DNA of 64,000 nucleotides, taken from IMG/VR virus record IMGVR_UViG_2799112719_000001. One strand, given 5' to 3'. Shown here one piece after another: positions 24,924 through 62,721 of this stretch. Source of the stretch: a virus. The notes below the pieces were generated by a model. The model did not search any database, was not told the origin of the DNA, and saw only the letters and a list, made by a program, of their open reading frames with translations. The stretch's first letter is position 1. Each line of letters starts with the position of its first letter. The translations under genes and the position numbers were made by a program.

Positions 24924-25187
24924 ATGACTGAAAATGAATTATTCAATAGAATACTTGACGTGATGGAGGCTCGTTTCGACAACATGCCACCGCGTCATTC
25001 CGTCACTATCGACGATAACTTTGCCGAAGACCTGGACTTGGAATCGCTCGACCTCGTAGATCTGATTATGGGCGTAGAGACCGCCTTTGACATCAAACTC
25101 GACATGGCCGATGCAAAGAACACCAAGACCATTCGTGACCTGATAAACTTTATTCGTGAAGTAAAGCCGGAGTTATGCGCACAGTAA
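24924..25187 (+). CDS. acpP: Acyl carrier protein
   Basis: 87 aa from ATG 24924. DLDLESLDLVDLIMGVETAFDIKL matches the ACP DSL phosphopantetheine-serine helix-II motif. Confidence 0.8.
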   Translation: MTENELFNRILDVMEARFDNMPPRHSVTIDDNFAEDLDLESLDLVDLIMGVETAFDIKLDMADAKNTKTIRDLINFIREVKPELCAQ

Positions 25188-28411: not shown

Positions 28412-28915
28412 ATGAAGAAACTAATTATCTCCTTTCTCCTGATGGCTATTTGCTGTCTCTCTGCATCCGCACAGGTGGAGTTCTCGAAGTTCAAACTGAG
28501 TAAGGATGAGCCATTCGGTGCTTTCCCTGGGCGTAAGATGCTGAACACGAAATTCAAAGTCACTGCTGACCGTGACCTGAAGTATTTGCTCGTTGACTAT
28601 TATATCGTGAATGCTGTTGGTGATGTGATCTCAGGCGCAACAGAGGGTTTCAAGAATGATACACTGGAGTACATCAAACCCAAACGCATGGAGTGTACTG
28701 GTCCTTTCAAGGCTGGTAAGTCGTTTTCTCCTTGGGTTAGTGGTGTTGTCACCTACCCCAACAAAGAAATCACGGCATTCCCGTTCCAGATACAGGTCAT
28801 GTATATGGGCACCGAAGAGTGGATAACGATTCCCATCACAAAAGAAAACCTTGCTACCTATTTCCCATGCCTGCAATGGATGGAGTATAGCCGTAAGAAC
28901 AAAAAGATACTATAA
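28412..28915 (+). CDS. Secreted protein (167 aa)
   Basis: Signal peptide MKKLIISFLLMAICCLSASA|Q (AxA cleavage site). Confidence 0.7.
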   Translation: MKKLIISFLLMAICCLSASAQVEFSKFKLSKDEPFGAFPGRKMLNTKFKVTADRDLKYLLVDYYIVNAVGDVISGATEGFKNDTLEYIKPKRMECTGPFKAGKSFSPWVSGVVTYPNKEITAFPFQIQVMYMGTEEWITIPITKENLATYFPCLQWMEYSRKNKKIL

Positions 28916-28980
28916 CCACATAATTTCTCACCGCATACTATGTGTATGCACATGAATCTTCTTTTCTTCCATGTAGCCAG

Positions 28981-29010
28981 CCCAGCAGCCACGAACTGCT
29001 GGGTTTTCTT
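28981..29010 (+). terminator. Intrinsic terminator
   Basis: CCCAGCAG (28981-28988) pairs with CTGCTGGG (28996-29003), then TTTTCTTT. Confidence 0.7.
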
Positions 29011-29011
29011 T

Positions 29012-29044
29012 GGGGTAAAACTTCGTAACCATTACCCCTAAACC
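29012..29044. repeat. Inverted pair of Rep-iteron copies
   Basis: GGGGTAAAACTTCGTAACC is identical to the core of iteron 3 at 44275-44293. It is followed by the inverted half ATTACCCCTAAACC. Confidence 0.7.
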
Positions 29045-29052
29045 ATCAAGTT

Positions 29053-29098
29053 TTATACCTCTCTATACTTTTCTATACCTGAGTCCTATACCTTTCTA
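29053..29098. repeat. Array of four (C)TATAC(C/T)T direct repeats with 10-13 bp period
   Basis: TTATACCT, CTATACTT, CTATACCT, CTATACCT. A fifth copy lies near 29350. Confidence 0.6.
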
Positions 29099-29556
29099 TT
29101 TTCATTGGGGTTTTGGGAAGATCCCAAATGTTTCCCCAATTCATAGGTCAATCCCAAATGACCTAAACCAAAATACCAACCTTTGTACCAAAATACTAAC
29201 CCTCATAATCAAAAATACCAAGGTTTGTACCAACCTTTGTATCAACTATTGCTTTGTTTCATCAGTTCATATCCTCATTATTTCATCTTTTCATCAGTCC
29301 ATTATTTAATGAATTGATGAAATAATGAATTTTTATTTTTCTCCGCTTTTCTATACTTAATGTTTTGAAAATTAGCAGGTTGCAAAACGGGCACTCCGAA
29401 AGTAGGGTTCCCAAAAATATTCGCAATTTACTGATTTTCAGAGGTACGGCCCAAGAAAAACACCCCTAAACTCACGCGAGACTCGCCGCCACAGTGGAGC
29501 GCAACCTCCACCCCCTACCCCCTGGAGCCGGTGAAATATGCCGGCGGGGTGTGAAG

Positions 29557-29890
29557 CGGTGCCCAGGGTGCCCGCGCTGGTGCGAAGCGGTGACAGTTCC
29601 AGCCAGATCGAGAGCCAGAGACCAGGCGCGAGGGGTCGGCCTGTTATCAGCTGTGTCCGGTGGGCTGCTGGTGTGCTGTCGCTCATCGGTGCGAGATCAT
29701 GCGCCCGCGCTGCTGGTGCTCTTCATGCCTGAAGGGTGCCCAGGGTGCCCGCGCTGGTGCTCACTGTTGCCAGCGGTGGCCGGTGTGCTGGTGCTCATCG
29801 GTGCGAGATCATGCGCCCGCGCTGCTGGTGCTTTTCATGCCTGAAGGGTGCCAGGGGTGCCCGCGCTGGTGCTCCCTGAGTGCCGCCGGC
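29557..29890. repeat. GC-rich tandem repeat: two full 112-bp units plus one partial unit
   Basis: GCTCATCGGTGCGAGATCATGCGCCCGCGCTGCTGGTGCT starts at 29681 and again at 29793. GGGTGCC(C)AGGGTGCCCGCGCTGGTGC occurs at 29557, 29734 and 29846. Confidence 0.8.
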
Positions 29891-29940
29891 TATATTATAT
29901 ATAATGTGTAAACGGCAAAAAATAAGCGAAAACAAAAAAT

Positions 29941-30059
29941 TTTCAAGAAAAAACGAAATTTTTTCGCTTTTTGTTTGGTGGTTTCAAATATTCTTTGTAC
30001 CTTTGCACCAGATAATTAAATAATAACCGCCTCCAGAGAGGCACAAAACATTTAAAGAT
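29941..30059 (+). promoter_or_regulatory. Early promoter/leader copy 1
   Basis: TTTTTTCGCTTTTT block, TTTGGTGGTTTCAAATATTCTTTG, a -7 box TACCTTTG at 29998-30005, leader hairpin GCCTC-CAGA-GAGGC at 30029-30042, then ACAAAACA. Confidence 0.65.
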
Positions 30060-30410
30060 ATGATTAAAACATCGCTTTTCTTTTCGCTCATGGAGATTGC
30101 AGCAGCAAACCCAGCAGGCTTTACAGTTGACGCAAACACCTTGCAACCAATTAACAAAGGTTACGCCGTCGCAGTCGCAGAGACTCAAAACAGCTTTGGC
30201 GATTATGGTCTTTTAAAGGTCATCGAGCACCAGAGCACACACCCCGCAACCGTCCAGGCGTTTGGCGGTTGGCTTGACAGCAAAAGCAACCAATTTTATT
30301 TTGATTGTACCATCATTTGCAGCGATTTAGAGACAGCCAAGGAGCTTGGCCGCCGTAATAATCAGCTCGCGATCTTCGACCTCGAAAACTTGGAAGAAAT
30401 CAGGCTTTAA
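30060..30410 (+). CDS. Hypothetical early protein (116 aa)
   Basis: First ORF after early promoter copy 1. Confidence 0.65.
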   Translation: MIKTSLFFSLMEIAAANPAGFTVDANTLQPINKGYAVAVAETQNSFGDYGLLKVIEHQSTHPATVQAFGGWLDSKSNQFYFDCTIICSDLETAKELGRRNNQLAIFDLENLEEIRL

Positions 30411-35059: not shown

Positions 35060-35335
35060 ATGACAACGAGCGAAGTTTTTGGTTTGATCAAGCGACTTTA
35101 TTCAGGTTGTGGCATTGCCGAGCCAGTTGTGCGCCATGAGCATACGAATCGTTTTGGCGATACGTTGGTAGAAGTTGAGCACCCCTATCGCAGTAAGTAT
35201 CTCCAGATAGTCTATAATGGTGAGCAGATAAAAGGCCCTATCCTTGACTGTTGGATAAATCCTAACTATCTGTGTCGTTACAACTCTTCCAGTGAGATAG
35301 CAAACATTGAGCAGCTTCAGAAGTGGGCTGCATAA
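35060..35335 (+). CDS. Hypothetical small protein (91 aa)
   Basis: Preceded by the TTCATTAATTCATTAAG element. Confidence 0.6.
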   Translation: MTTSEVFGLIKRLYSGCGIAEPVVRHEHTNRFGDTLVEVEHPYRSKYLQIVYNGEQIKGPILDCWINPNYLCRYNSSSEIANIEQLQKWAA

Positions 35336-35387
35336 ACTCACCACTTCATTAATTCATCAAGTTATTAATTCATTAAAATATAAGATT

Positions 35388-36905
35388 ATGAATCTGTTTA
35401 CAAGTAACCCCGACTTTTATCCCACACCTAAAGAAGTGATTGCCCAGATGATGATGGGTGAGGATTTTATTGGTAAGACTATCCTGGAGCCGTCTGCTGG
35501 TTCTGGTAATATCGTTGACTGGCTGAAGCAGAACGGTGCCGGTCAAGTTATTGCCTGCGAGAATGACCCGCATTTGCTGAAGCTGTTACGTGGCAAATGT
35601 GACATCGTGGCCGAGGACTTTTTGACTGTCACCTCTGAGCAGGTTTCGCATGTTGACTATATCGTAATGAACCCGCCATTTAGTGAGGGTGCCAAGCACA
35701 TCCTTCATGCTTTCGACATTGCCCCCGCTGGTTGTACTATTGTGGCCCTTTGCAACAGTAGCAACTTTGAAAGTTGCTATCGTGATAAAACTAAGGCTCA
35801 ACTTAAAGAGACTGTTGAGTTGTATGGCCAGCGTGAGTTTTTGGGGAATATTTTCAAGAATGCAGAACGATGCACAGAGGTACATGTAGAACTGGTTAAG
35901 CTCTATAAAGAAGGTGAGGGTGAGAATGAGTTTGACGGTTACTTCTTTGAGCAGTTTGACAGTGACGTGGCCGGAGGTTCTGAAGAGGGATTGATGCAAT
36001 ATAACTTCGTGCGCGACATCGTGAACCGCTATACTTCTGCCGTGCGAATGTTTGACCAAGTGATGCAGCTGTCAAAGGATATAAATGAGGTTGCCGATTT
36101 CTACGACTTTAAGACCATTCAGGACCCCAAGACTGGTGAGTTGCGTCAGGAGAAAGTAACCTATGGTGGTTTACCTATAACCTTTGGTGCCCAGACTAAG
36201 AGCGAACATCCTACGGCTGTCAGTCATCAGCGTTATAAGCGTGAACTTCAGAAGCACTACTGGCATATCATTTTCCAGAAACTCAACATGGATAAGTATG
36301 CTACCAAGGATTTGCGCGAGCAGATCAATAAGTTTATAGAGTCGCAGAAGTGTGTTCCGTTTACTATGAAGAATATTTATAAGGTAGTGGATATGGTTAT
36401 CCAGACCAATGGGCAAAGGATGCTGAAAGCTCTGGAGGAAGCCTTTGATGTTATTTGCAGCCTGAGTGCAGAAAACTCTACCGCTGGCGAGAAATGGAAG
36501 ACTAATGCCAACTATATGGTGAATCGTCGTTTTATAGTTGACTATATCACTGAGGGCTATTTCTATGGTCGTACCAATTACACTGTTGACTTCCCTTGTG
36601 GTGGTCGTACTGAGATAATGGAGGATGTCTGTAAGGCTCTGTGTTATCTGACAGGTCGTAATTACGATGAGATAGGCCGTCTCTCTTCTGTTGGTCGTGG
36701 TAAGGAGTGGGGCAAATGGTTTGAGTGGGGTTTCTTCCGCTGTCGTGGGTATAAGAAGGGAACCATGCACTTTGAGTTTCTGGATGAAGATGTATGGGGA
36801 AAGTTTAATTATGAGGTGGCCGTCCTGAAGTCAAAAACTAAAGGCTGGGATTTGCCGAAAGTTACACCAAAGAAGTCAAAGATGAAGAGGGCTGCATCTG
36901 CATAA
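35388..36905 (+). CDS. N6-adenine DNA methyltransferase (gamma-like motif order) with a roughly 300-aa C-terminal extension
   Basis: ATG at 35388. Motif I ILEPSAGSGN, motif IV VMNPPFS, and FYPTP near the N-terminus. Confidence 0.75.
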   Translation: MNLFTSNPDFYPTPKEVIAQMMMGEDFIGKTILEPSAGSGNIVDWLKQNGAGQVIACENDPHLLKLLRGKCDIVAEDFLTVTSEQVSHVDYIVMNPPFSEGAKHILHAFDIAPAGCTIVALCNSSNFESCYRDKTKAQLKETVELYGQREFLGNIFKNAERCTEVHVELVKLYKEGEGENEFDGYFFEQFDSDVAGGSEEGLMQYNFVRDIVNRYTSAVRMFDQVMQLSKDINEVADFYDFKTIQDPKTGELRQEKVTYGGLPITFGAQTKSEHPTAVSHQRYKRELQKHYWHIIFQKLNMDKYATKDLREQINKFIESQKCVPFTMKNIYKVVDMVIQTNGQRMLKALEEAFDVICSLSAENSTAGEKWKTNANYMVNRRFIVDYITEGYFYGRTNYTVDFPCGGRTEIMEDVCKALCYLTGRNYDEIGRLSSVGRGKEWGKWFEWGFFRCRGYKKGTMHFEFLDEDVWGKFNYEVAVLKSKTKGWDLPKVTPKKSKMKRAASA

Positions 36906-37937: not shown

Positions 37938-38252
37938 ATGACTAAGGTAGTTTTCCGTAAGTTCAAGGATGGCGAAGTTATTGCCGTGTTCCCAGAGGTT
38001 TCATATAACTATGTACATATCATGTCGTATCAGCATGTCGGACAGCATGGCGACTGTGTGCCCTGGATATCCTCTTTCACTAAGCCGGCCACCCCAGATG
38101 AGTATGCCGACCTGTTGGCAGAATTGAAATCTATTGGCTACGATGATTTGCAGATCTGCAAGCGTATTAATCAGAATGCCTGCCGCCGTTCTTTCTGTCA
38201 GTATGGCCAAAAGGAGGCTCCAGCTGCTATCACGTCAGCATTCCGTTCATAA
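37938..38252 (+). CDS. Hypothetical protein (104 aa)
   Basis: Preceded by the TTCATTAACTCATTAATTCATCAAG element. Confidence 0.6.
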   Translation: MTKVVFRKFKDGEVIAVFPEVSYNYVHIMSYQHVGQHGDCVPWISSFTKPATPDEYADLLAELKSIGYDDLQICKRINQNACRRSFCQYGQKEAPAAITSAFRS

Positions 38253-38281
38253 ATTCATTAATTCATAAATTCATTACGACT

Positions 38282-40005: not shown

Positions 40006-41619
40006 ATGACACAGAAAGATTACATTGCACTGGTGAACCAGGCACAGAGAAAGAGTTATGAGTATTACGTCCTGTCGGCTCCGACTATCAGCGACACAGA
40101 GTTTGACGTGTTGGTGGCTGAGATCGAGAAGGCTGAGTCTGAACATCCTGAGTGGATAGTTCCTGACTCTCCGACACAGTGCGTAGGTTCTGACCTGTCG
40201 GCCAATGGCCGCCGTCAGATCATCCATCGTACACCGATGCTGTCGTGCCAGAAGGCTAAGAACCTGGACGAACTGGCTAAGTGGGTCAGCAAGAGTGAGC
40301 AGCGTATGAATGAGCTGACTCATAGCAACCATACCGGCGGTTACAATTATGTGCTGATGTGGAAGTATGACGGCATTTCGTGCTCTATCGTTTATCAGGA
40401 TGGCGAACTGGTGAGTGCATCGACTCGTGGCGATGGTAGGGTAGGGCAGGACATCACCGAGCATGTGAAGATGATGGGTAGTGTGCCCCAGCAGCTTTCA
40501 AAGATTTATTATGGTGAGGGCTTTTCTCTCAAAGGTCGTATCGAAGTGCGTGGCGAGATCTGTTGCAGTAAGAAGAATCTGCCGTTGCTCTCTCAGAAGT
40601 ACACCGACTGCCGTACTGCCGCCAGCAGCTTGTGCAACCAGGCCGTGCCCGATGAGTACGACATGGCTATGCTCGACTTCATTCCCTGGGATGCTATAAT
40701 TGACGAACAGATCAGCTGCCAGCGTTACCTTTGTCCTACGCCGTTGGGTTATCCTTGGCATAAGCTCTCATTCCTGGAGAACCTGGGTTTCGTGCATCGT
40801 GCAGAGACTTTCTCGCCTCATGGCTACGAAGCCTGTGCTGCCTGCATTGCAGAGCGTGAGAAGGAGCGTGACGCTTATCCATGGCCTGTTGACGGTGTGG
40901 TTATACGCATTACGCATGATGACTACTTCCAGATGTTCGGTGCCACTGAGCACCATCCTCATGGCTCTATTGCCTATAAGTTTGCACCGGCTAAGACCAT
41001 TACCCGCTGCACTCGCATTGAGGTGACTGTCGGTAAGACCGGCAAGCGTACTCCCGTCGTACACTTCGAGCCTGTCACCATTATGGGCCGTACCGTCCGT
41101 AAGGCCAGCGTGGGCAGTGAGGCCACTCTCCAGCGTCTTGGTGTGGTCATGGGTAGCACCATTGAGGTAGGACTTGCTAACGATGTCCGTCCGACTGTCT
41201 ATCGCGTTATAGAGGATGCAGAAAATCAGGCTCCCGAAGTTACGGAAAATGACCCCTTAGAGGGTATCGACTTCCCTGGTGAAGAGAGTCCTGTATGTAG
41301 CAACATTGTTGCTGCCTCTGAAGAGGAACAGCCCGAAGAGCCTTGGTTGGCTCCGTCGTTTGCAGATCTCTATCCTGAGACGCAGGTACTTCACGAGGCA
41401 CCTACGCCTCCAGTAGTGGAGCCTGCTGTCGTTCCTGTCAGTGAGGATGATGGCCAGCAGTCGCCTGGTGGCTCTGTTGCTGCTCCTAACGGTAAGCATA
41501 AGATTCTGGCTGCCGTGGCCACTCTCTGCGTGGCTCTGGCCGTTGTGTGTGGTGCTGCCGTGCTCCTGGGTGCTCTGGCCTTTGCGCTGCCTGTGCTCAA
41601 TGGAACACTTCGCGCATAA
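40006..41619 (+). CDS. ligA: NAD-dependent DNA ligase (LigA), minimal form with a C-terminal hydrophobic anchor
   Basis: Domain Ia YYVLSAPTISDTEFD, adenylation motifs WKYDGIS and STRGDGRVGQDIT, EVRGEI, and OB-fold motifs DGVVIRI, AYKFAPA and VGKTGKRTPV. No Zn-finger, HhH or BRCT region. It ends with an uncharged hydrophobic run of about 35 aa. Confidence 0.85.
   Translation: MTQKDYIALVNQAQRKSYEYYVLSAPTISDTEFDVLVAEIEKAESEHPEWIVPDSPTQCVGSDLSANGRRQIIHRTPMLSCQKAKNLDELAKWVSKSEQRMNELTHSNHTGGYNYVLMWKYDGISCSIVYQDGELVSASTRGDGRVGQDITEHVKMMGSVPQQLSKIYYGEGFSLKGRIEVRGEICCSKKNLPLLSQKYTDCRTAASSLCNQAVPDEYDMAMLDFIPWDAIIDEQISCQRYLCPTPLGYPWHKLSFLENLGFVHRAETFSPHGYEACAACIAEREKERDAYPWPVDGVVIRITHDDYFQMFGATEHHPHGSIAYKFAPAKTITRCTRIEVTVGKTGKRTPVVHFEPVTIMGRTVRKASVGSEATLQRLGVVMGSTIEVGLANDVRPTVYRVIEDAENQAPEVTENDPLEGIDFPGEESPVCSNIVAASEEEQPEEPWLAPSFADLYPETQVLHEAPTPPVVEPAVVPVSEDDGQQSPGGSVAAPNGKHKILAAVATLCVALAVVCGAAVLLGALAFALPVLNGTLRA
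41239..41260 (+). repeat. Iteron-like copy inside the ligase gene
   Basis: GTTACGGAAAATGACCCCT is identical over 19 nt to 43961-43979 in the origin region. Confidence 0.7.
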
Positions 41620-41663
41620 TCATCAATTCATAGATTCATAAATTCATAAAATCATTATAGTAT

Positions 41664-42491: not shown

Positions 42492-42579
42492 TGGTCCTGT
42501 ATGTGGTTATGTTATAACGACTCTGAAAAATCACAGTTTTCATAAATTCATTAACTCATATTTTCATAAATTCATAAAA

Positions 42580-42630
42580 TAATGACGATTTTATTTTGTC
42601 AATTCAAAGTTTTATAGTACATTTGCACCA
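42580..42630 (+). promoter_or_regulatory. Promoter of the partition operon
   Basis: -7 box TACATTTG at 42618-42625, 25 nt upstream of the parA ATG. Confidence 0.5.
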
Positions 42631-42649
42631 AATTAAAATAATATAGGTT

Positions 42650-43513
42650 ATGGAAAGACTGAAAGAAGTTTTGGCTTTTGCCAACAACAAGGGTGGGGTA
42701 GCGAAGACTACCACCGTGCAGAACGTGGCTGCCGGAATGCTGAGACGTGATCCGTCGCTGCGCATCCTCTGCATTGACCTGGACCCGCAAGGGAATCTCT
42801 CATCGCTCCTGGGATGGAGGGAAAAGATGAAACAGTATCACGAGCAGAAGCACTCGACGCTGACGGTGGCCGACGCTCTGAGGGATGGCGATAACAATCA
42901 CCTGCCAGTGTATCAGAGCCGCGAGGGGCTGTTCTATGTGCCTGCATCGCCCATGCTGGCCGAGATAGATCCTGACCTGCACCGCCAGATGCAGCCGAAG
43001 CTGGTGCTGGCCTCGCTGTTTGGTAACGACATTCACTACATGGATAACCTCTACATGGAGGCAGAGCGACTGGATGGAGACTACATAGAGGACTGCTTCG
43101 ACTATGTGCTGATAGACTGTGCTCCTGCGCTGTCAGAACTGACCTACAACGCCCTGGGTGCCGCTACGGGTGTAATCATACCCGTGCAGCTGGGTTCGCT
43201 CAGTGTGGACGGCATAGGGCGCATGATGGAGGCTTACAAGGCGGTTAAGCGGAAACTAAACAACGACCTGGATATGCGGGGCCTGCTGATAGTGATGGCC
43301 GATGAGCGCACTAACCTGGCACGAGAGACCAGCGACTTCCTGCGCGACACCTACGATGCCGACATGTTCAAGACGCGCATCCGTCAGTGTGTGAAGGTGG
43401 GTGAAAGCCAGTTCCAGCATCAGGACATCTTCGACTATGCGCCTGACTGTACCGCTGCCCGCGACTACGACGATTTTATCACGGAATTGTTGAACAATGA
43501 TAATGAGGAATAA
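42650..43513 (+). CDS. parA: ParA/Soj-family partition ATPase
   Basis: Deviant Walker A FANNKGGVAKTTT, followed by IDLDPQGN and VLIDCAP motifs. Confidence 0.85.
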   Translation: MERLKEVLAFANNKGGVAKTTTVQNVAAGMLRRDPSLRILCIDLDPQGNLSSLLGWREKMKQYHEQKHSTLTVADALRDGDNNHLPVYQSREGLFYVPASPMLAEIDPDLHRQMQPKLVLASLFGNDIHYMDNLYMEAERLDGDYIEDCFDYVLIDCAPALSELTYNALGAATGVIIPVQLGSLSVDGIGRMMEAYKAVKRKLNNDLDMRGLLIVMADERTNLARETSDFLRDTYDADMFKTRIRQCVKVGESQFQHQDIFDYAPDCTAARDYDDFITELLNNDNEE

Positions 43514-43515
43514 CT

Positions 43516-43857
43516 ATGGCTACAAAATCGTATAAGAAAAAGAGTATCGTGGCTGGATCACCTGCCATTCAGGAACACGAGGCCATGATGCAGGAGGTGA
43601 TGAATGAGCAGCCTGTCAACGACACGCCAGCCGTTCCGACGGCCAGTGTGCCAACAGGTAAGGGCGTGAAGCCTACGGGTGTGTTCTCGCAGTATGCTAC
43701 TGGCATGACGAAGAATGTGCAGACGCGCATCCCCTTTGACATGTACCAGCGTTTGCTTGCCCTGAAGATGCAGAGTGAGCAGCGGGATAAGAAACTGAAA
43801 CTCTCCATCGGCGACCTGGTGCTTCAGGCCATCGACGAATATCTGCAACGGCATTGA
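43516..43857 (+). CDS. ParG-like ribbon-helix-helix centromere-binding protein (113 aa)
   Basis: 2-nt gap after parA. The C-terminal LKLSIGDLVLQAIDEYLQRH fits an RHH fold, and the N-terminus looks disordered. Confidence 0.5.
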   Translation: MATKSYKKKSIVAGSPAIQEHEAMMQEVMNEQPVNDTPAVPTASVPTGKGVKPTGVFSQYATGMTKNVQTRIPFDMYQRLLALKMQSEQRDKKLKLSIGDLVLQAIDEYLQRH

Positions 43858-43927
43858 GGTTACGTCCTCATACCCCTTACTTAAAGGCTATGCAGGAAAT
43901 CACCGATTTTGGAGAGTTACCGAATTT

Positions 43928-44294
43928 GACCCCTAAATTTACGACCCCGCACCCCTGAAGGTTACGGAAAATGACCCCTAAATGAAGCATTTTCTTTATT
44001 TATTATATAGTATTGAGAATTTTCTTTTATGGATTTAGAAAAGATATATAATTATAACGGTATGAAAATAGCCGGAAAAGCCTTTATACAAAGGGTTTCC
44101 GCTCTTTGCAGGGTGCAAATGTCCGTAACTTTCGGTGCAAATGTTCGTAACATAAGGGTAATTATCCGTAACCGTAGGGGATATTCTCTGGAACCCTTTT
44201 GTTTAGGGGTAAAACAGCGTAACCTATCGCTGAATATGGTGGAAGATTTAGGGGTAAAATCCCGTAACCTGTTTAGGGGTAAAACTTCGTAACT
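43928..44294. repeat. Iteron-type replication origin (oriV)
   Basis: Three direct 23-nt iterons TTTAGGGGTAAAAnnnCGTAAC(C/T) at 44202, 44247 and 44272. Two 19-nt repeats GGTGCAAATGT(C/T)CGTAAC at 44111 and 44134. Inverted GACCCCTAAAT half-sites at 43928 and 43973. An AT-rich stretch lies at 43985-44030. Confidence 0.75.
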
Positions 44295-44327
44295 TTGAGT
44301 CGATACTAAGTTTCAACTTATAAAGAA

Positions 44328-45797
44328 ATGACTATGGCAAAGAAAAACAAAGACGATAAGATGCAGGCACTCATCAAGAGCGACAATGCCATTATCCGTG
44401 AGCTGCGCGATCAGAAGTGGATTTATAATCCCAAGGTGTTCGCACAGGTGGCTGGTGACTTCTCGCTGATGCACCAAAGGGTTCTGTTGGGTGTGCTCGA
44501 AAAGCTGCAAGACCGTATAGCCTATTCTGCTTCTGAGCATCAGAAGAATCAGCAGCTTTGGCTCCCGCTCTTCTCGCCGGACGAAATGAATACGTCGGTG
44601 GACTTCGAGATAGACCCAAGAGATATTGGTGTGACTCCTGGCCACTATCCTGAGTTGGCACAGGCTTTGTCAGATCTGATAGGTCTGAAGATGGGTTGGC
44701 CGAAGCGTAAGGGTAATAAGACGGTGTATCAGTTTGTGTCATTCTTCAGTCGCCTGGAAATGCCGATGACTGAAAGCGGATGGCGCACAGGAAAGATCCG
44801 CGTAAAGATGGATAAGGAGAATGTCAACGACTTCTTATCCATGGAGCGTGGCTATACTGACCACATCGCTAAGATTGCTCAGTTCTCGAAGAAACAGCGT
44901 ACTCCCAGACTGTATATCTACCTTTCGACGTTCAAATATAAGAAGCGTGACGAAGTAGAGTACCCAGAACTGTGCGAGTTCCTTGGCATTGATGATGAAA
45001 GTTATGTGGAGTCGCATAAGGCAGAGAATCCTAATGTGAAGCCTACGGATAATCCTTTTCATAAGTTCTCGAAGGTGAAGAAACTGATTCTGGACCCATC
45101 GAAGCAGGAAATGGATAAGTTCTCGGCTGAGAAGAAAATCGACTTCACGTTTACTTACGAGCCGATGTATAAGGATGGCCGTAAGAAGGGTAATCCTACG
45201 CATATTGAGTTTGTCATCGTTCCAGGACCGCTGGGAATTGAGCGTGAACAGGACCGCAAACGTCATGGGCAGGTGCAGAGTGTCATCAGTTCGCTTACGA
45301 AATGGTGTCCTGACATCAAACCTTACGAGGTGGTGGAACTGGCCAAGGAGGTGCAGGATGACTGGCTGGATGACTTCTGTAACTTTGCCTACGACGATGT
45401 GCGCCATCAGGTAGAGAAGACTCAGCCAGACCATGTGGCAGAATATGTCATTACGATGCTCTCTAACTGGATTAAGGATCGTCAGATGGCCGCAGAGCGT
45501 AAGCGTATAGAGGACCAGAGACAGTATGAGCTATTTGAGCGTCAGGAGGCAGAAAGTAAGTGGCCTGCTTGCTTTGCTGAGATCTCGGCATCTATACCTG
45601 TCACTTCCAGTCAGCTTTATTTCTGTGACTATGGGAATGCAGAGATAAAAGGGGTGGTTAGAAAGACCATCACTTTGTGGATAGTGAATGAGGCATTTAT
45701 ATCGGTGATTGAAAGCAAAGAGAATCTGCCGGCCTATGAGGGTGCTATCCGTAAATATTATGGTCAAATAGCCGTTCAATACAAATTGATAAGGTAA
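44328..45797 (+). CDS. Rep_3-like plasmid replication initiator (489 aa)
   Basis: The N-terminal LIKSDNAIIRE...FSLMHQRVLLGVLEKL fits the Rep_3 initiator pattern. The gene is flanked by iterons. Confidence 0.65.
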   Translation: MTMAKKNKDDKMQALIKSDNAIIRELRDQKWIYNPKVFAQVAGDFSLMHQRVLLGVLEKLQDRIAYSASEHQKNQQLWLPLFSPDEMNTSVDFEIDPRDIGVTPGHYPELAQALSDLIGLKMGWPKRKGNKTVYQFVSFFSRLEMPMTESGWRTGKIRVKMDKENVNDFLSMERGYTDHIAKIAQFSKKQRTPRLYIYLSTFKYKKRDEVEYPELCEFLGIDDESYVESHKAENPNVKPTDNPFHKFSKVKKLILDPSKQEMDKFSAEKKIDFTFTYEPMYKDGRKKGNPTHIEFVIVPGPLGIEREQDRKRHGQVQSVISSLTKWCPDIKPYEVVELAKEVQDDWLDDFCNFAYDDVRHQVEKTQPDHVAEYVITMLSNWIKDRQMAAERKRIEDQRQYELFERQEAESKWPACFAEISASIPVTSSQLYFCDYGNAEIKGVVRKTITLWIVNEAFISVIESKENLPAYEGAIRKYYGQIAVQYKLIR

Positions 45798-45823
45798 GGT
45801 TACGGAAAATACCCCCTAAATTT
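45798..45823 (+). repeat. Iteron-like copy immediately after the rep stop codon
   Basis: GGTTACGGAAAATACCCCCTAAATTT; compare 43960-43984. Confidence 0.65.
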
Positions 45824-45850
45824 GTCTCACATTTTTCATTTGATAGAAGT

Positions 45851-45886
45851 ACCTTTGGCGTAGTATTCACCAAAGGTATTTTTATT
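45851..45886 (+). terminator. Intrinsic terminator after rep
   Basis: ACCTTTGG (45851-45858) pairs with CCAAAGGT (45870-45877), then ATTTTTATT. Confidence 0.65.
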
Positions 45887-45888
45887 GT

Positions 45889-46491
45889 ATGAGAAAAAAA
45901 TCACTGCTTTTCTGTTTTTTGTGTTGCTATATCATAGCAGCCTTATCCTCGTGTTCTGCTACTCAGACTACCATCGACCACTCAGAGAGCCACCATATAG
46001 ATAGCAGCTTTGTGCAGATGCAGTTGCAGCAGTTGGTCAGTCAGCAGCAGGCCCGTTACGACTCTCTGATGCGTGTGGTGCAGCAGCGTGACTCGATTTC
46101 CCAGAATATCAACGAGCAGGAGCGTGAGCACATCACCGAAACGGTTACGTCGTGGATCGACTCGCTGGGGCGCAAGGTGACTCAGGAGGCCCGTACCATC
46201 GACCGCCAGCGTGACCGATCAGAGGAACTGCGTCAGCAGCGTATCATCAATGAGCAGGAGCAACGCATCCAGTCGTGCCAGGAGCGCATCGACTCGCTCT
46301 ATAATCTCTTACTCGAAAAGACGGCTCTGGAGGTAAACGACACAACCAATTACCACAAAGAGGTCATCAAACCGGCACACACGCCATCGTTCCTACAACG
46401 TGTGCATGACTTCTTTACTACCTTGGTCAATGTCATCGTCTTTGCTGCTATCTTCGCCTTTATCATTCGCTGGAAACGCCGTAAGTCGTAA
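45889..46491 (+). CDS. Lipoprotein with a coiled-coil middle and a C-terminal TM anchor (unimolecular-spanin-like architecture)
   Basis: Lipobox AALSS|C, a Gln/Arg/Glu-rich helical middle, and a C-terminal LVNVIVFAAIFAFII helix followed by RWKRRKS. Confidence 0.7.
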   Translation: MRKKSLLFCFLCCYIIAALSSCSATQTTIDHSESHHIDSSFVQMQLQQLVSQQQARYDSLMRVVQQRDSISQNINEQEREHITETVTSWIDSLGRKVTQEARTIDRQRDRSEELRQQRIINEQEQRIQSCQERIDSLYNLLLEKTALEVNDTTNYHKEVIKPAHTPSFLQRVHDFFTTLVNVIVFAAIFAFIIRWKRRKS

Positions 46492-47472
46492 GATACTCCC
46501 TACACCTGAAGCCTTTTCGTGGCTCAAACTCTTCAAAGGAATGGGCTACGAAATGGGCTTTTTTGTTGACCCATCCTGCCATGTCCTTTTGCCATTGTGG
46601 AATGATATGGTGTGGGTTGTTAGGATCACGGTAGGGCTGGGCATGTGGATAGACATAGCGGCCCTGATGTGAGGCCCGCGTCTCTTGTGTACGATGCCAC
46701 CAATAGGTGATGCGCTCGTAGCACTCCCTGAAGTCTGAGGTGAGCATGGTGTATAGGAAGTATTGCCCTGTGAAGCCGTAGCGGTTGATCATATTCATGG
46801 CCCGCTCACATTCTGCTATCTGTCCGTGTGTGTCACAGCCGAAGCGGATGCGGTTGTTATCGAGCCACTTCACTTTTGCCAGCAGCTGTGCTATCTCATC
46901 CGTTACCAGTCGTGCATCGAGGGCCTGATTGAAGTCCACTCGGTAGCCTCTTTCTATAATCTTTTGCAGCTGCTGTATGCAGTAGTCGCCAGCAGCCAGA
47001 ATATTGTTATCCATCAGCACTAACTTACGACGGCCCTCAATGGCTATTTCGTCCACATCCATATATGGCCGGATGGCTCCCTCTTTCTTGGGCACCACAC
47101 ACCAACGGCATTTGTTAGGACAGCCGCGAGTGAGGAATCCGTAGGCAGTATCTTTCGGGATGTTAGGATAGATGGAGTAGTCTGGCTGCAAACGGTCTAT
47201 TTCGTCGGGCAACTGGCTCAGAGGATCATAGCCGGTGCCTCCTTTGATGATTTTGTCTGCATCGTAGATATAAGTATCGTCTGGGGAAAAGTTAAACACT
47301 TTCGACATATACACAATGTCGTAGTGCTCCATGGGGCTTGCCCATGAGATTTGCCCCCCCCCCTATTACGCCAGTATCTCGCAATCTTAGCGAGTGCGAG
47401 ATTGGGGTAAATCGTGGCTCCCCACTTTTTTTTCTTGGCGTGTCCGTCCACGTCCACAAGTCCTATCTTCAT
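46463..47472 (-). CDS. Radical SAM enzyme, split by a frameshift in a G10 tract (phase-variable, pseudogene or sequencing error)
   Basis: The downstream part carries CPNKCRWC (CX3CX2C). The upstream 40 codons (MKIGLVDVDG...YPNLALAKIARYWR) continue into the downstream frame only if the G-run is 11 or 8 nt long. Confidence 0.7.
47354..47363 (-). repeat. Homopolymer: G10 on the coding strand
   Basis: TTGCCCCCCCCCCTATT on the plus strand. Confidence 0.95.
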
Positions 47473-47810: not shown

Positions 47811-47838
47811 AATTTAATGAATTGATGAATTACTTAAA

Positions 47839-47979
47839 TCATTTATTTTTCTTGTGAAGAATGACCCTGTTATACGTTTCCTCAATAGCTTTATATTCCT
47901 GTATTGTCATTGGTATAGGTGGGGTCATAGGACGTAACATTGGACGTTTTTTAGGCAATGAGTATTTTTTGTTTGACAT
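47839..47979 (-). CDS. Possible basic small protein (46 aa), below the ORF-track cutoff
   Basis: MSNKKYSLPKKRPMLRP... It fills the gap between the methylase and the next gene. Confidence 0.3.
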   Translation of the reverse strand: MSNKKYSLPKKRPMLRPMTPPIPMTIQEYKAIEETYNRVILHKKNK

Positions 47980-47994
47980 AATCGTAATCTTTCT

Positions 47995-48808
47995 TCATAT
48001 CTCGAAATCTAATGTTAGCTGTCTGCTTGCTTCTCTGATGCGTTTTTTAGCAACCTTGAAATACTTTGGGTCTTTCTCGATGCCGATATACTGCCTTTTC
48101 TCCATGATGGCCGCTACACAGGTGGTGCCGCTTCCCATCGTATTGTCTAAAATTACCCCCCCCCATTTGGCTATAAGTCCTTATCAGGTAGCGTAGCAGA
48201 TCCACGGGCTTTTGTGTCGGATGGAACACAGTGGTCTCATGCTCTTTCTGAATATGGATGATGCTCTGAGGAAATTTCTCGTTGGGTCGGGTAGGGGCCA
48301 CCTTGCGTATTTGCTTATCGTAGTCATACGTTCTGCCGGTCTTGAACTGTCCGTAACAGTTGTTAGTCCTGGGGTGCTCCAACTTCCCCTGGGAATGGTT
48401 TGGCTCTCCGATGCCCATCTGAGGGTTATAGACAGGCAGCTGCTTATAGAACACACAAATATCCTCATGGCAACGCATGGGCATACGGTTGGCATTCAGA
48501 AAGCCGGTGCCGCGTCCTTTATCCCATATCAGATTGTATCTCCAGAGCTTCCTATTGCTTTGCATGAGGTCGCTGGTAAACATTCCCTGGGCAAAGAGTA
48601 TAATTGCACCATTGGGCTTAATAATGCGCTCATATTGCGCCCAAAGTGGCTGGAACGGAATTATTCGGTCCCATTGCGCATTAGGGTTGTCTTTGTGAAG
48701 CACCTGGTATGGCAGATCGCAGATGATGGCATCAATGCTTTCGTCTGCTATCCCTGTCATCAGGTCCAGGCAGTCGCCTAAGTATATGTTGTTTGGCTCT
48801 ACGTTCAT
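47995..48808 (-). CDS. Beta-class N6A/N4C DNA methyltransferase (N6_N4_Mtase), split by a frameshift in a G9 tract
   Basis: The in-frame part has DLPY (a DPPY variant) and HPTQKP. The SAM-binding motif I (ILDNTMGSGTTCVAA) is encoded downstream in another frame and is restored by a G-run of 8 or 11. Confidence 0.8.
48156..48164 (-). repeat. Homopolymer: G9 on the coding strand
   Basis: AATTACCCCCCCCCATTT on the plus strand. Confidence 0.95.
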
Positions 48809-57154: not shown

Positions 57155-58822
57155 TTACCCGAAGTCGAGCATGGAATTTTTCTGCTTCTGCTGATATTCC
57201 TCGTGGTACATCTGCCAGATGTCACGGTAATGGTTGATGTCATCCATCAGTTTGCCACGCATCTGCTTGGTGACATTCTTCTGCTCGTTGATGGCAGCCT
57301 GTCGGTTGTCGGCACTGAGCATCTGACGCAGGCAGTGGCCTACGATGGTACGAGTGCCCCAGCCACCGAAGCTGAGGTTACTCTCAGGACAGATAATCGT
57401 ATCTCCACAATAGGAGTACCAGATGTTATCCTCGATGGTGTAGAAGTTGACGGCATCCTCACCAATAACCATCAGTACGTCGGGCGCATCCTTATAGATG
57501 GCGGCACAGAGGGCAACACCTTTCCAGGTCTCTAACTTCACAAACAGCATGTCATCCAATAGCTGCTGGTCGCGCAACAGGTCAATGAGCTGCTCATTGC
57601 TGGAGTCAGCACATCCGCGCTCATCGAAATGGAGTTTCAACTGATCGCCGTTATTGCCACCGTAGAGCCATGTAAGGTAGGCATGGAGAATCTTATCATT
57701 CCAGGATGGGAGCATCTGGCGCACCTCTTCCTGGTCTGCTTTGTCGAATACCAGTTTGGTAAGGTCAAACTCAATGCAGTTGGCCCAATCTCTGAGGTAG
57801 GGTTCAGGTGACAGGCGCACACAGTTGCTTTCCAGTCCTAACAGCTCGTGTGTCTGTGTGCCAAACTCCTTTTGGAACTCATCGAATACCTTGTTGGTGA
57901 TGTTGGCAAAGACAGGACCTAATAGGTCAAAACGAGCCTCGAAGGTGTCGATGCGCTCTGCCAGTGTTGGCTCTTTCACTTCTGCCAGTTCCACCGTCAT
58001 GTCACCATCGGCATCCCTCTGCTCCTGAGTCTTCAGGAAGGTGTCGAGCATCTGCTGGCGACGCTTCAAATCATCTTCGGCCATCATCAAACGGATTTTG
58101 TCTGAGGTGGCTCTGTCGGGCTTCTGGCCAGGCTTCAGCTCGTTTAGTTTACTTTGGTAGAATTGTTCCAGTGTGATGGCCTTTACCTGATACTGCTTGG
58201 CCAAAGCAGAAAAGTTTTTCAGCGAATTATTCTGCTGATAAAACTCCACCACGGCACAAAGGTACTCGTGGAATTTCTTTAATCTCTGTTCGTTCATATA
58301 TAAATTGATTTTAGGGGTTATAGTGTCCTGTGCCTTTTCCGTAGGCAGTGGCTTTGCAGCTGCTTCTTTCTTCTCGGCCTTCTGGCGTTTCTTCTGCTCT
58401 GCTTCCTCTTGTAAGGCTTGCTGACGCTCTGCCTCACGTCGTTTCTGCTCGGCGATCTTCTCTTCACGAAGCTGCTGGGCGCGTTCCTTTTCCTCGGCCT
58501 CGCGCTGGCGGTTCTCTTCGTCGATCTTTTCCTGGGCCACTTTCAGCTGCTCTTTCCATGCCTCCAGTTTTTCCTCGGCGGCCTTTGCTTTGGCATCTGC
58601 TTTCTCGGCCCGTTCACTCCATCCAAAGGGAGCACCCACCAAACGATTCTCTTTCACCATTCGACGGGCTACGCAGGGATTTATACTGCTGCTCGATGCT
58701 GGGATAGTCCTGCCGTCAGGATGTTTCCAGATCTGATGCTTGGTGGTACGGTCGAGTACAAAGCCATTCTTTTTCAATAGCCGCTCCCAATCTTTCTTGC
58801 TGATGTTATGTAAACCTCCCAT
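57155..58822 (-). CDS. HicA-like N-terminal domain fused to a charged coiled coil and a roughly 350-aa C-terminal domain (555 aa)
   Basis: From ATG 58822: ISKKDWERLLKKNGFVLDRTTKHQIWKHPDGRTIPASSS fits the HicA/YcfA fold pattern. This is followed by about 110 aa of E/K/Q/R-rich helix. Confidence 0.6.
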   Translation of the reverse strand: MGGLHNISKKDWERLLKKNGFVLDRTTKHQIWKHPDGRTIPASSSSINPCVARRMVKENRLVGAPFGWSERAEKADAKAKAAEEKLEAWKEQLKVAQEKIDEENRQREAEEKERAQQLREEKIAEQKRREAERQQALQEEAEQKKRQKAEKKEAAAKPLPTEKAQDTITPKINLYMNEQRLKKFHEYLCAVVEFYQQNNSLKNFSALAKQYQVKAITLEQFYQSKLNELKPGQKPDRATSDKIRLMMAEDDLKRRQQMLDTFLKTQEQRDADGDMTVELAEVKEPTLAERIDTFEARFDLLGPVFANITNKVFDEFQKEFGTQTHELLGLESNCVRLSPEPYLRDWANCIEFDLTKLVFDKADQEEVRQMLPSWNDKILHAYLTWLYGGNNGDQLKLHFDERGCADSSNEQLIDLLRDQQLLDDMLFVKLETWKGVALCAAIYKDAPDVLMVIGEDAVNFYTIEDNIWYSYCGDTIICPESNLSFGGWGTRTIVGHCLRQMLSADNRQAAINEQKNVTKQMRGKLMDDINHYRDIWQMYHEEYQQKQKNSMLDFG

Positions 58823-58824
58823 AA

Positions 58825-58989
58825 TTATTCTGCATGAATAAAACAGTCTCTCGTTTCTTCGTCGCAATGCTCAATAGTCTGGATGTCTCTGCTGGGGCAG
58901 AAGGCACCGTATTGGTCGAATCGCTCACAGATGCTTGCTAAACCGCAGTTTACGCCGTGACATTTCATAGTTATTTGTTGTTTGCTCAT
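58825..58989 (-). CDS. Cys-rich small protein (54 aa), below the ORF-track cutoff
   Basis: MSKQQITMKCHGVNCG..ICE..FCP..HCDEETRDCF. ATGA overlap with the upstream stop. Confidence 0.4.
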   Translation of the reverse strand: MSKQQITMKCHGVNCGLASICERFDQYGAFCPSRDIQTIEHCDEETRDCFIHAE

Positions 58990-61962: not shown

Positions 61963-62721
61963 TTACTTATGGTCAGGTTCATCGGCTGCTATCCACATGG
62001 CCTCTTTTTGTTCGCGTCCCTGCTGGTAGAACTTTGACAGCTCCGCATTCTGCCGCTCGATGATATCCATCAGCCGATTGCGCTCTGCGTCGAAGCTGGC
62101 CTGGCAGTCACGCCTTATCCTGTCCTCACGCTCATGGTGTTCTCGCTCCGTAGCCCGCATTTCGTTGGCGTGTTCCAACTGCATCCGAAGGATGGTCTCT
62201 ACCAAGTTCTGCTGTCCTGCCGTGTTGTCTGCTGCTTTCTCGCTGGTCTCTTCCGCTTCTGGCAGTGGCCTGCCCGCGTCTGTCCGTTGCTCCAGCTGCA
62301 TCAGTGCTTCGTCGCGCCGGTGCTGTTGCTCACTCTGCCTGGCAAGTCCCTCGGCAACGACGGTGGCCTGTGCCTGTGAACTGATCTGCCGCTCAGTAAT
62401 CCGCGTTTCCACGATGCCCCTGCCGCGTCCCTCCTTGATGCCGTAGCCGTCAACGGGTAGCGTCTGACTGTTGCTGTCGGGTAGGGTAGGGCGTATCTCT
62501 GCTGGCATACCGTCACCGTCAAAGAAGAATCCGTCTAACGGAATGTTGTAGTAGTTGCAGAAACGCAACATTGCAGTCACATGGACGGGAACCTTCCCAT
62601 CCAGCCATTTGTTTAGTGACACATAGTCACCACACCCCAGGGCTTCCAGCAAGTCCTTTTTGGCGAGTTTGTGGCTATCCATGAATTGCTGGAGATAGCC
62701 GTAGTTGTACGAGTAATCCAT
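61963..62721 (-). CDS. CI-like XRE-family repressor (252 aa)
   Basis: N-terminal HTH (LAKKDLLEALGCGDYVSLNKWLDGK) with a long C-terminal domain. It is transcribed divergently from the next operon. Confidence 0.6.
   Translation of the reverse strand: MDYSYNYGYLQQFMDSHKLAKKDLLEALGCGDYVSLNKWLDGKVPVHVTAMLRFCNYYNIPLDGFFFDGDGMPAEIRPTLPDSNSQTLPVDGYGIKEGRGRGIVETRITERQISSQAQATVVAEGLARQSEQQHRRDEALMQLEQRTDAGRPLPEAEETSEKAADNTAGQQNLVETILRMQLEHANEMRATEREHHEREDRIRRDCQASFDAERNRLMDIIERQNAELSKFYQQGREQKEAMWIAADEPDHK

Follow-up and report, generated by a model that had tools for sequence, protein, structure and literature searches.

The 64,000-nucleotide stretch of DNA analysed here (IMG/VR virus record IMGVR_UViG_2799112719_000001, hereafter the window) contains a compact cassette at 42.6–45.9 kb, in which the gene for a ParA ATPase is followed by a gene for a protein of 113 amino acids (aa), a non-coding region rich in repeats and the gene for a replication initiator, rep. 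The window corresponds to positions 221–64,220 of the 104,285-bp contig k127_164232 of assembly ERZ931398. The structure of the cassette is described below, together with its bearing on the lifestyle of the tailed phage genome that carries it.

The replication and partition cassette

The first gene, parA (42650–43513, + strand), encodes a Soj/ParA-type ATPase of 287 aa with the deviant Walker A motif KGGVAKTT at residues 14–21. An earlier reading of this DNA, made without database searches (the sequence-only reading), had named the gene from this motif, and profile searches agree: the protein matches the Pfam families AAA_31 (4.3e-34) and CbiA (1.7e-15) as well as PHROG_164, 'ParA-like partition protein' (1.6e-50). 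The nearest solved structures are Soj/ParA proteins of 255–273 aa (best match 1wcv, 2.6e-29). Since these align over the full length, the protein is a small ParA lacking the N-terminal DNA-binding helix-turn-helix (HTH) domain. A putative promoter of the Bacteroidota type can be read from the sequence at 42595–42625 (+), with a −33 element TTTG (42595–42598), a 19-nt spacer and a −7 element TAcaTTTG (42618–42625). The underlying consensus is established knowledge of Bacteroides promoters; a sigma-70 promoter scan is uninformative for Bacteroidota.

The gene for the 113-aa partner (43516–43857, +) follows directly. A basic peptide at the N-terminus (KKKSIVAGSPAIQEHEAMM) is joined by a disordered linker to a strand-helix-helix segment at the C-terminus (KNVQTRIP...SIGDLVLQAIDEYL). 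On its own sequence, the protein has no Pfam or PHROG match. Its 47 relatives are all about 100–130 aa long, and in their alignment both termini are conserved, the N-terminal one as a basic peptide (K-KKSIVAGSPAIQEHEAMM) and the C-terminal one as KNVQTRIP-x3-Y-x-L...SIGDIV-x-QAI-x-EYL, with a variable low-complexity linker between them. In the AlphaFold2 (AF2) model, a disordered part and an extended segment precede two helices (residues 74–90 and 98–112, pLDDT 81–90); an extended segment with two confident helices corresponds to the pattern of a ribbon-helix-helix (RHH) monomer. The best match of the family profile in the PDB was the RHH protein ORF56 of pRN1, weak at E 0.16, and weak matches to Pfam RHH_1 (0.082) and DUF6290 (0.008) occurred in only one or two members of the family. 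Foldseek returned no match for the model, because most of the chain is disordered. The model thus suggests that the protein is probably an RHH centromere-binding protein; the open reading frame (ORF) of the RHH-like partner proposed earlier lies where it had been placed, but its fold is suggestive only. A small gene directly follows parA in ten of ten related loci checked that have one, the most distant included, and L040 showed none. Homologues with the strand KNVQTR are encoded only in loci whose ParA is at least 80% identical, and the small proteins of L036, L015 and L022 differ in this strand.

The third gene, rep (44328–45797, +), codes for a Rep_3-type initiator of 489 aa, whose true start is probably the ATG at 44334. 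Two winged-helix domains, WH1 and WH2, occupy residues ~1–300 and are followed by a long helix and a DnaA-domain-I-like part (~425–489). A search of 5.8 billion proteins yielded 34 relatives of ~480–515 aa, all of them unnamed metagenomic proteins. When 30 relatives were scanned singly, Rep3_N was found in 10 and Rep3_C in 14 of them at E ≤0.01, and DnaA_N at the C-terminus of four. The Pfam cut-offs are passed by P0019 for Rep3_N (26.5 bits, cut-off 22.4), by P0031 for Rep3_C (26.6 bits, cut-off 21.1) and by P0029 for DnaA_N (37.7 bits); the C-terminus of the window Rep is collinear with the DnaA_N-positive end of the latter. For the AF2 model calculated on the family alignment (mean pLDDT 83.6), the best PDB match in Foldseek was the Rep_3 WH1 domain 6h24 (probability 1.0), and the C-terminal part matched DnaA domain I (4tps_D, TM 0.57). 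Sequence searches of the PDB with Rep, alone and as a family profile, gave no meaningful match. Among the viral structures of BFVD, Rep matched metagenomic phage proteins named 'DNA replication' or 'replication initiation' (5e-19 to 1e-7). In tblastn, residues ~10–320 matched annotated initiators of Segatella, Prevotella, Bacteroides and Phocaeicola plasmids (up to 1e-18, 22–27% identity), and no match was obtained in 50,697 GenBank phage records. In conclusion, Rep is a plasmid-type Rep_3 initiator with an added C-terminal DnaA-domain-I-like domain, in agreement with the 489-aa Rep_3-like initiator that had been predicted at these coordinates. The 93-kb Segatella copri plasmid with the nearest annotated Rep was considered as a relative of the element and rejected: the 15-kb flank inspected contains transporter- and hydrolase-type genes and no phage genes, and looks like that of an ordinary plasmid. 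The rep transcription unit ends in a terminator-like hairpin at 45851–45886 (+), composed of ACCTTTGG, an 11-nt loop and CCAAAGGT, followed by the T-run ATTTTTATT; an automatic terminator scan missed it because the loop exceeds 8 nt.

The 470 nt between the gene for the 113-aa protein and rep are occupied by a single repeat family in both orientations, whose unit is bipartite (TTAGGGGTAAAA-nnn-CGTAAC). Seven direct units form the right array (+). Units 1–4 (44110–44129, 44132–44151, 44153–44172 and 44175–44194) are spaced by 21–22 bp and precede units 5–7 (44202–44223, 44247–44268 and 44272–44293). The CGTAAC ends of the array lie at 44129, 44151, 44172, 44194, 44223, 44268 and 44293, and it stops 35 nt before rep, where unit 7 overlaps a putative −7 box (TAACTTTG, 44290–44297). 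The last three units are 22–23-nt repeats (TTTAGGGGTAAAAnnnCGTAAC) and coincide with the three 23-nt iterons listed at 44202, 44247 and 44272 in the sequence-only reading. Two 19-nt repeats listed there as separate (44111 and 44134) are real, but represent degenerate units of the same array, sharing the CGTAAC half and the 22-bp register. Likewise, the inverted half-sites given at 43928 and 43973 exist, but are the ACCCCTAAAT ends of full inverted iterons at 43857, 43915 and 43959. These belong to the left array (43857–43983, − strand), which has strong cores at 43859–43876, 43916–43933 and 43961–43978 and a weak core at 43938–43955. Within the window, AGGGGTAAAANNNCGTAAC occurs at ten sites with at most three mismatches (0.28 expected; none of 100 shuffles reached ten), and the core GGGGT-N7-CGTAAC at 12 sites with at most one mismatch (0.92 expected; shuffle maximum four). 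Nine of these 12 cores are located inside the module.

Between the two arrays, the composition profile shows that GC falls to 21–26% (43960–44079). The spacer itself (43984–44073, GC 21–26%) contains repeated 12-mers (AGMATTTTCTTT), and the AT-rich block is kept in relatives; it is probably the DNA-unwinding element. Adjacent to it lies a non-coding element of 27 nt with short inverted arms (GGAAAAGCCTTTATACAAAGGGTTTCC, 44074–44100), which is conserved in relatives with 57–99% identical Rep and could bind a host factor. In eight such relatives the inverted copies, the AT-rich gap, GGAAAAGCCTTTATACAAAGGGTTTCC and the direct copies follow each other in the same order up to rep, and GGGG and CGTAAC are the invariant columns in an otherwise diverged origin alignment. 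With at least three phased direct repeats of ~17–22 bp beside an AT-rich region and a rep gene, the locus has the make-up of an iteron-type theta origin. DnaA boxes are present in many, though not all, iteron plasmid origins; here, no box (TTATCCACA, at most one mismatch) was found at 43.8–44.4 kb, nor is the motif enriched in the window. Two genes called in the ENA record, of 87 aa (44029–44292, +) and 37 aa (~43877–43990, −), overlie the AT-rich gap and the iterons and are almost certainly spurious.

Further copies of the iteron lie outside the origin proper. A single inverted iteron is situated directly 3' of the rep stop codon (45797–45821, −), and ten of ten loci scanned have such a site, located +1.45 to +1.50 kb relative to the rep start. 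At a distance of 3.1 kb upstream of rep, the NAD-ligase gene contains an outlying iteron with a perfect core in its 3' end (41239–41256, −); six loci, some only 67–76% identical, have a copy at −3.04 to −3.16 kb. Two more iteron-like sites have perfect cores: one at 47921–47938 (+), common only to the closest relative L002, and one at 29012–29029 (+), at the edge of a 1.1-kb non-coding, repeat-rich region (28915–30060). In this region, the iteron core is accompanied by an adjacent inverted half-site (29009–29045) and by the short repeats CTATACC and AAAATACCAACCTTTGTACC, and a GC-rich block (29480–29890) contains a unit of ~110 nt twice. Similar GC-rich short repeats are found at the contig end of the related element of Prevotella sp. 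MGM1 described below. Possible roles of the region are those of a packaging site, an origin for lytic replication or a second locus under Rep control.

Complete genome and related loci

Two contigs assembled from different samples, ERZ931398 k127_164232 (104,285 bp) and ERZ27279871 k141_584085 (104,187 bp), encode an identical Rep protein. The ends of the latter overlap exactly by 141 nt, the k-mer of the assembler, and its break point corresponds to window positions 47284–47424, where the former runs unbroken; the break point of the former, in turn, falls mid-contig in the latter. Host DNA is absent from both contigs. Since the two assemblies break at different points and one of them has the 141-nt terminal overlap, the genome is circular or circularly permuted, with a length of 104,046 bp.

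More than 15 close relatives are found on contigs of 90–107 kb without host flanks, some of which were binned into Prevotella or Prevotellaceae metagenome-assembled genomes (MAGs). One relative makes up the entire Contig204 (90,283 bp) of the cultured mouse-gut isolate Prevotella sp. MGM1, a contig that ends in GC-rich short repeats. The clade as a whole comprises dozens of rumen and gut contigs of 90–107 kb, several Prevotellaceae MAGs among them and one cultured Prevotella, and is mainly from the rumen. All contigs of the relatives are classified as viral in IMG/VR. A Bacteroidota host had been proposed before, and the phylum is correct, as relatives stem from Prevotella and Prevotellaceae genomes including the isolate. 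Distant Rep relatives (~30% identity) lie in part on contigs of 120–250 kb, which could be chromosomal. The gene order ligase, 275-aa gene, ParA, small protein, Rep is preserved down to 38% Rep identity, and the same arrangement is present in two independent assemblies and more than ten relatives. A megablast search with window 40–48 kb against GenBank phages and PLSDB plasmids gave no match.

Comparison of these loci indicates which protein the repeats follow. Distant Rep clades carry other repeat families in the same place upstream of rep. Locus L008 shares 96.7% nucleotide identity with the window through ligase-parA-parB and again after rep, and 72% across rep; the swapped segment covers L008 9945–11122 and window 44272–45446, with a backbone of 96–97% on both sides. 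The MGM1 element has a ParA of 83% identity and an unchanged RHH strand, whereas its Rep is only ~39% identical and the repeats read TTTTGGTAAAACGTGGTAAC. Their layout is the same: three copies in inverted orientation are separated by a gap from three direct ones, which are spaced by 22 bp. Elements of the MGM1 type combine a Rep of 39–40% identity and other iterons with a ParA of 83–87% identity. Because the swaps in L008 and MGM1 change rep, in MGM1 together with its repeats, but keep ParAB, the iterons follow Rep and not ParAB. On these comparative grounds, the repeats may be the specific binding sites of the adjacent Rep. The left inverted array was also considered as a centromere for the RHH protein and was rejected, as it consists of the same motif as the right array and this motif tracks Rep, not ParAB, in the swaps. 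The exchange of rep-iteron cassettes perhaps reflects an escape from incompatibility.

A second repeat family is associated with the start of genes. Upstream of the parA promoter lie two copies of a tandem-octamer motif (TTTTCATAAATTCATWAA, 42537–42578, +), which are a candidate operator or centromere, or else a clade-wide leader motif; in relatives, octamer arrays of two to six octamers each likewise precede parA. The tandem motif with 8-nt period (TTCATAAATTCATAAA) is present in the window in 25 copies (0.11 expected), for example at 11028, 28383, 34474, 35031, 38244–38277, 41625–41650, 42537 and 42561 on the + strand and at 47814, 49429, 55160 and 57128 on the − strand. Its orientation is always that of the downstream gene, and most copies end 4–14 nt before an ATG. 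All relatives with a ParA of at least 80% identity have 5–9 copies per 10 kb, and more distant relatives nearly none. The motif is present wherever the partner protein keeps the strand KNVQTR and nearly absent where the strand differs, a pattern that is confounded with phylogeny. The octamers may act as a translation leader specific to the clade, as a promoter of leaderless-like transcripts or as a binding site of the RHH protein. The best candidate for a centromere is the TTCATAAA octamer array upstream of the parA promoter (42537–42578).

Phage identity and lifestyle

Few structural genes are recognised by PHROG and Pfam. A portal protein of 614 aa is encoded at 15200–17044 (+; tblastn to annotated portal proteins, 1e-20), and the product of a 663-aa gene 5 kb ahead of the window start resembles annotated large terminases (3e-32). 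Outside the window, and read in a 98%-identical relative, are genes for a head maturation protease (1.5e-23) and for a tape-measure-like protein of 1897 aa (9e-37). The endolysin, an N-acetylmuramoyl-L-alanine amidase, is encoded at 11049–11777 (+; PHROG_435, 1.3e-28; Pfam Amidase_3). The presence of portal, terminase, protease, tape-measure-like protein and endolysin identifies the element as a bona fide tailed phage. It also carries a diversity-generating retroelement, in which a template repeat of 119 nt (412–530) lies upstream of a reverse transcriptase gene (796–2142; PHROG_1423, 3e-68). The template is 85% identical to the 3' end of a 415-aa gene that straddles the window start (end of the variable repeat at window 1–19; target gene at L097 8027–9274), and 16 of the 18 mismatches fall on template adenines. 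Within 10 kb past the window end, an exonuclease, a 1213-aa DUF5906 protein, a sliding clamp, an HNH protein and a dCTP deaminase are encoded. The ~22 kb outside the window that were read in the 98% relative also contain genes for a C5 methylase, a BT4734/PriCT-2 primase-like protein, ThyX, a radical-SAM protein, Dam and YopX. The DUF5906 protein, for which a PDB search gave no match, forms together with the primase-like protein, the clamp and the ligase a plausible separate replication set for lytic growth.

Scans of the window ORFs with Pfam and PHROG revealed no tyrosine or serine recombinase, DDE transposase or protelomerase. Precomputed Pfam lists for window 1–11 kb and 34–64 kb plus 10 kb on either side contain no integrase family, and none was detected in the remaining 22 kb scanned in the 98%-identical relative. 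No hit was obtained in the window with Rfam at gathering scores or with a tRNA scan, so that no tRNA-linked att site is indicated. At a divergent promoter region, a possible regulator of 252 aa is encoded at 61963–62721 (−). An XRE-like HTH segment at its N-terminus is combined with a coiled coil at the C-terminus; its PHROG matches to a transcriptional regulator (1.2e-4) and a repressor (1e-3) are weak, and it has no match to a Pfam HTH or S24 family.

From the tailed-phage genes, the plasmid-type cassette, the host-free circular assemblies and the lack of an integrase, we infer that the element is probably a temperate tailed phage of rumen Prevotella of ~104 kb, whose prophage is kept as a low-copy plasmid by means of the 42.6–45.9 kb cassette. 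It combines genes for virion, packaging and lysis with replication and partition functions of plasmid type, it has no integrase or transposase, and its close relatives occur only on contigs of 90–107 kb. Phage-plasmids reportedly were delineated as a functional class by Pfeifer et al. in 2021. An extrachromosomal plasmid prophage was also the conclusion of the sequence-only reading, and the genomic evidence supports it. Its statement that no integrase is visible in the 64-kb window was confirmed and now extends over nearly the whole genome. The maintenance module that it called complete does contain ParA, a Rep_3-type Rep and an iteron origin, but the RHH assignment is suggestive and the centromere a candidate. 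Its CI-like repressor was a guess, as the 252-aa protein has a weak HTH match and no S24 peptidase domain.

A working model for the cassette can be proposed as follows. Monomers of Rep would bind the bipartite 19–22-bp iterons by contacting GGGGTAAAA with one winged helix and, at a distance of roughly one helical turn, CGTAAC with the other. The left array of inverted copies and the right array of phased direct copies may then bend or wrap the DNA around the 90-bp AT-rich stretch, which would melt, and the DnaA-domain-I-like domain of Rep could recruit the host helicase or mediate contacts between Rep molecules. Overlap of the iteron nearest to rep with the −7 box of the rep promoter would allow Rep to repress its own synthesis, while the outlying iterons 3' of rep and ~3 kb upstream might limit the copy number by looping or handcuffing. 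The Soj-type ParA and its small RHH partner would act as a type-Ib-like partition pair that segregates the copies. In this process the partner may bind a repeat array, for which the TTCATAAA octamers are the best candidate, and stimulate ParA via its conserved basic N-terminal peptide. Lytic growth would proceed through separate genes outside the cassette (1213-aa DUF5906 protein, PriCT-2 primase-like protein, sliding clamp and ligase). A bolder version, which we regard as improbable, would have the RHH partner act as an omega-like global regulator at the TTCATAAA arrays, and Rep bypass host DnaA by means of its own DnaA-domain-I-like module. If so, the partition protein would, as long as the element is a plasmid, determine expression levels over much of the phage genome as well, and Rep itself would recruit the helicase at an origin devoid of DnaA boxes.

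Several observations weigh against a plasmid prophage. The RHH fold of the 113-aa protein did not reach significance in any search made, the centromere stands at candidate level only, and the window Rep alone stays below the Pfam cut-offs, its sole match being Rep3_C (0.0027; 18.4 bits, cut-off 21.1). The negative result for integrases covers ~22 kb only via the 98% relative, and small ORFs were partly scanned. Contig204 of MGM1 shows no terminal overlap (its last 33 nt, searched in IMG/VR, gave only the self-match). Moreover, the 252-aa protein is weakly supported as a candidate lysogeny repressor, a virulent phage with a circularly permuted genome is equally expected to give a circular assembly, and the many genes of nucleotide metabolism and replication (ligase, ThyX, dCTP deaminase, clamp) are more typical of virulent phages. 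The last three points would be in keeping with a virulent or pseudolysogenic phage, as would the non-lytic persistence known for crAss-like Bacteroidota phages (PMC10983915). In such a phage, Rep and the iterons would form a theta-type origin for productive infection, comparable to lambda O and ori-lambda, and ParA with its partner would position DNA during replication or packaging or support a transient carrier state, not a stable plasmid prophage. However, a ParA paired with a centromere binder is a hallmark of low-copy segregation, Rep is plasmid-derived and matches only Bacteroidales plasmids and no GenBank phage, and a second candidate replication set exists for lytic growth. In addition, one relative is a whole contig in the assembly of a cultured Prevotella and others were binned with Prevotellaceae MAGs, and the rep-iteron swaps between near-identical backbones look like an escape from plasmid incompatibility. 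We therefore consider a virulent or pseudolysogenic lifestyle rather unlikely.

An ordinary integrating temperate phage, with Rep and Par as secondary or remnant functions, would have to possess a recombinase that is too divergent or located in the part unread in the exact strain. Room for such a gene is left by the many ORFs without a family match and by the ~22 kb read only in the 98% relative, and the distant Rep relatives on possibly chromosomal contigs of 120–250 kb would be consistent with integration. Tyrosine and serine recombinases and DDE transposases are, however, among the easiest families to detect, and none appeared in any scan. The two circularly permuted assemblies and the more than 15 close relatives on 90–107-kb contigs without host flanks likewise argue against integration, and neither the synteny of the cassette nor its constrained non-coding sites are expected of a remnant; an integrating phage is considered very unlikely. 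Very unlikely, too, is a plasmid with captured phage genes (a defective prophage or a gene-transfer-agent-like element) or a chimeric assembly, and hence no functional phage. No major capsid protein or tail tube was identified, and most putative structural ORFs lack a PHROG match; yet terminase, portal, protease, tape-measure-like protein, endolysin and a diversity-generating retroelement with an active-looking pair of template and variable repeats are all collinear, the arrangement recurs in two independent assemblies and in more than ten relatives, and the contigs of all relatives are classed as viral in IMG/VR. A linear plasmid of the N15 type was ruled out by the circular, permuted assemblies.

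Known systems and further gene content

The temperate, plasmid-prophage reading invites comparison with P1, to which the element is similar in several respects. Both are tailed temperate phages of ~100 kb without chromosomal integration, with an iteron-binding initiator beside the origin (RepA/oriR and incA in P1), extra iterons outside the origin proper and a Walker-type ParA partition system, and a separate gene set serves lytic replication in P1 (RepL/oriL) and plausibly in the element. P1 relies on a type Ia ParA, which includes an HTH domain, and on a large ParB (ParA-ParB-parS); the element, in contrast, has a small Soj-like ParA with a small, probable RHH partner. Its iterons flank the AT-rich region in inverted orientation, its Rep has a DnaA-domain-I-like C-terminus and its origin no DnaA box, no Cre/lox-like recombinase was found, and the host phylum is Bacteroidota. 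The parallel drawn before to P1, N15 and SSU5 holds on the level of function, but no sequence similarity is detectable (megablast with 40–48 kb, tblastn with Rep) and there is no feature of a protelomerase or of linear ends.

With the Rep_3 initiators (RepE of F, pi of R6K, RepA of pPS10; PF01051, PF21205), Rep has the two winged-helix domains in common, and as in Rep_3 plasmids, direct repeats of ~20 bp at ~22-bp spacing lie by an AT-rich region directly upstream of rep. Different from these, Rep is phage-encoded and ~190 residues longer, owing to the long helix and the C-terminal domain. The partition genes resemble type Ib systems (ParF-ParG of TP228, delta-omega of pSM19035), in which a small Walker ParA without HTH domain is followed by a ~100-aa protein with a flexible basic N-terminal tail and a C-terminal strand-helix-helix, and short-repeat arrays lie upstream of the operon. 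However, the ParA of the element is Soj-like (2.6e-29, compared with 5e-7 for ParF), and its candidate octamers occur in ~25 copies, mostly 4–14 nt before start codons; centromere and RHH fold are putative here. We know of no centromere with an octamer-like distribution before start codons, although control of several promoters is also a function of omega.

While much is known of phage-plasmids in Enterobacteria and Firmicutes, they have hardly been studied in Bacteroidota, the dominant phylum of gut and rumen. Within this phylum, a branch of the Quimbyviridae has a winged-helix RepA-like protein and no integrase, and an episomal lifestyle was inferred for it (Benler et al. 2021, PMC8008677); crAssphage was proposed as a phage-plasmid (PMC10983915), and phage-plasmids of the gut were reported to be common (bioRxiv 10.1101/2025.02.07.636470). 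These precedents qualify the earlier statement that such elements are poorly characterised in Bacteroidota, which is otherwise fair. Like the element, these are tailed Bacteroidota phages from gut metagenomes with a proposed episomal state, and some Quimby-like phages carry diversity-generating retroelements. By their description they differ, as no iteron origin or ParA/RHH pair of this type is reported for them, and the clade of the element is ~100 kb in size and mainly from the rumen. Since episomal Rep-bearing Bacteroidota phages had been proposed before, the element represents a further group of a known kind. In the literature covered, which was incomplete, no description of this clade, its iteron origin or the Rep-DnaA_N architecture was found, and the genomic comparison supports a new, widespread group of phage-plasmids.

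Such a group would be of practical and evolutionary relevance. The replicon is compact and clearly bounded (iterons plus rep, ~2 kb) and could serve as the backbone of a low-copy vector for Prevotella and Segatella, where genetic manipulation is difficult and low-copy vectors are much needed. Judging from the exchange of rep and iterons between backbones that are nearly identical, incompatibility appears to shape how these phages evolve, and tools that infer a temperate lifestyle from an integrase will misclassify them. Two features may be of interest to specialists: the extension of Rep that resembles DnaA domain I, and the octamer motif found genome-wide, which might be tied to the partition protein.

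Some further genes of the element deserve mention. Directly after rep, and syntenic in relatives, a 200-aa protein is encoded (45889–46491) that shows a lipoprotein signal (…LSSC), a coiled-coil middle part and a C-terminal transmembrane helix. This is the predicted layout of a unimolecular spanin, though the gene lies far from the endolysin, or of a surface exclusion protein. A 570-aa protein (57155–58867, −; 555 aa in ENA) matches the HicA toxin domain with residues ~25–61 at 27.3 bits, which equals the Pfam cut-off; its other 500 residues have no assignment, and no obvious HicB lies beside it. It could have an addiction or defence function in the plasmid state.

At least four DNA methyltransferases (DUF4942/N6 type, N6_N4_Mtase, C5 methylase and Dam) are encoded together with a Tad2-like anti-Thoeris protein and two radical-SAM proteins. 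As judged from family matches, the methyltransferases and the Tad2-like protein constitute a heavy anti-restriction and anti-defence load; the predicted anti-restriction and anti-defence genes lie at window 35307–36905, 48047–48808 and 46463–47332, at L134 11106–12560, at L214 7389–7880 and at L107 2505–3533. Finally, a beta-ketoacyl-ACP synthase, unusual for a phage, is encoded among the genes of the structural region (25175–26410; Pfam ketoacyl-synt 2e-25, C-terminal domain 1e-20).

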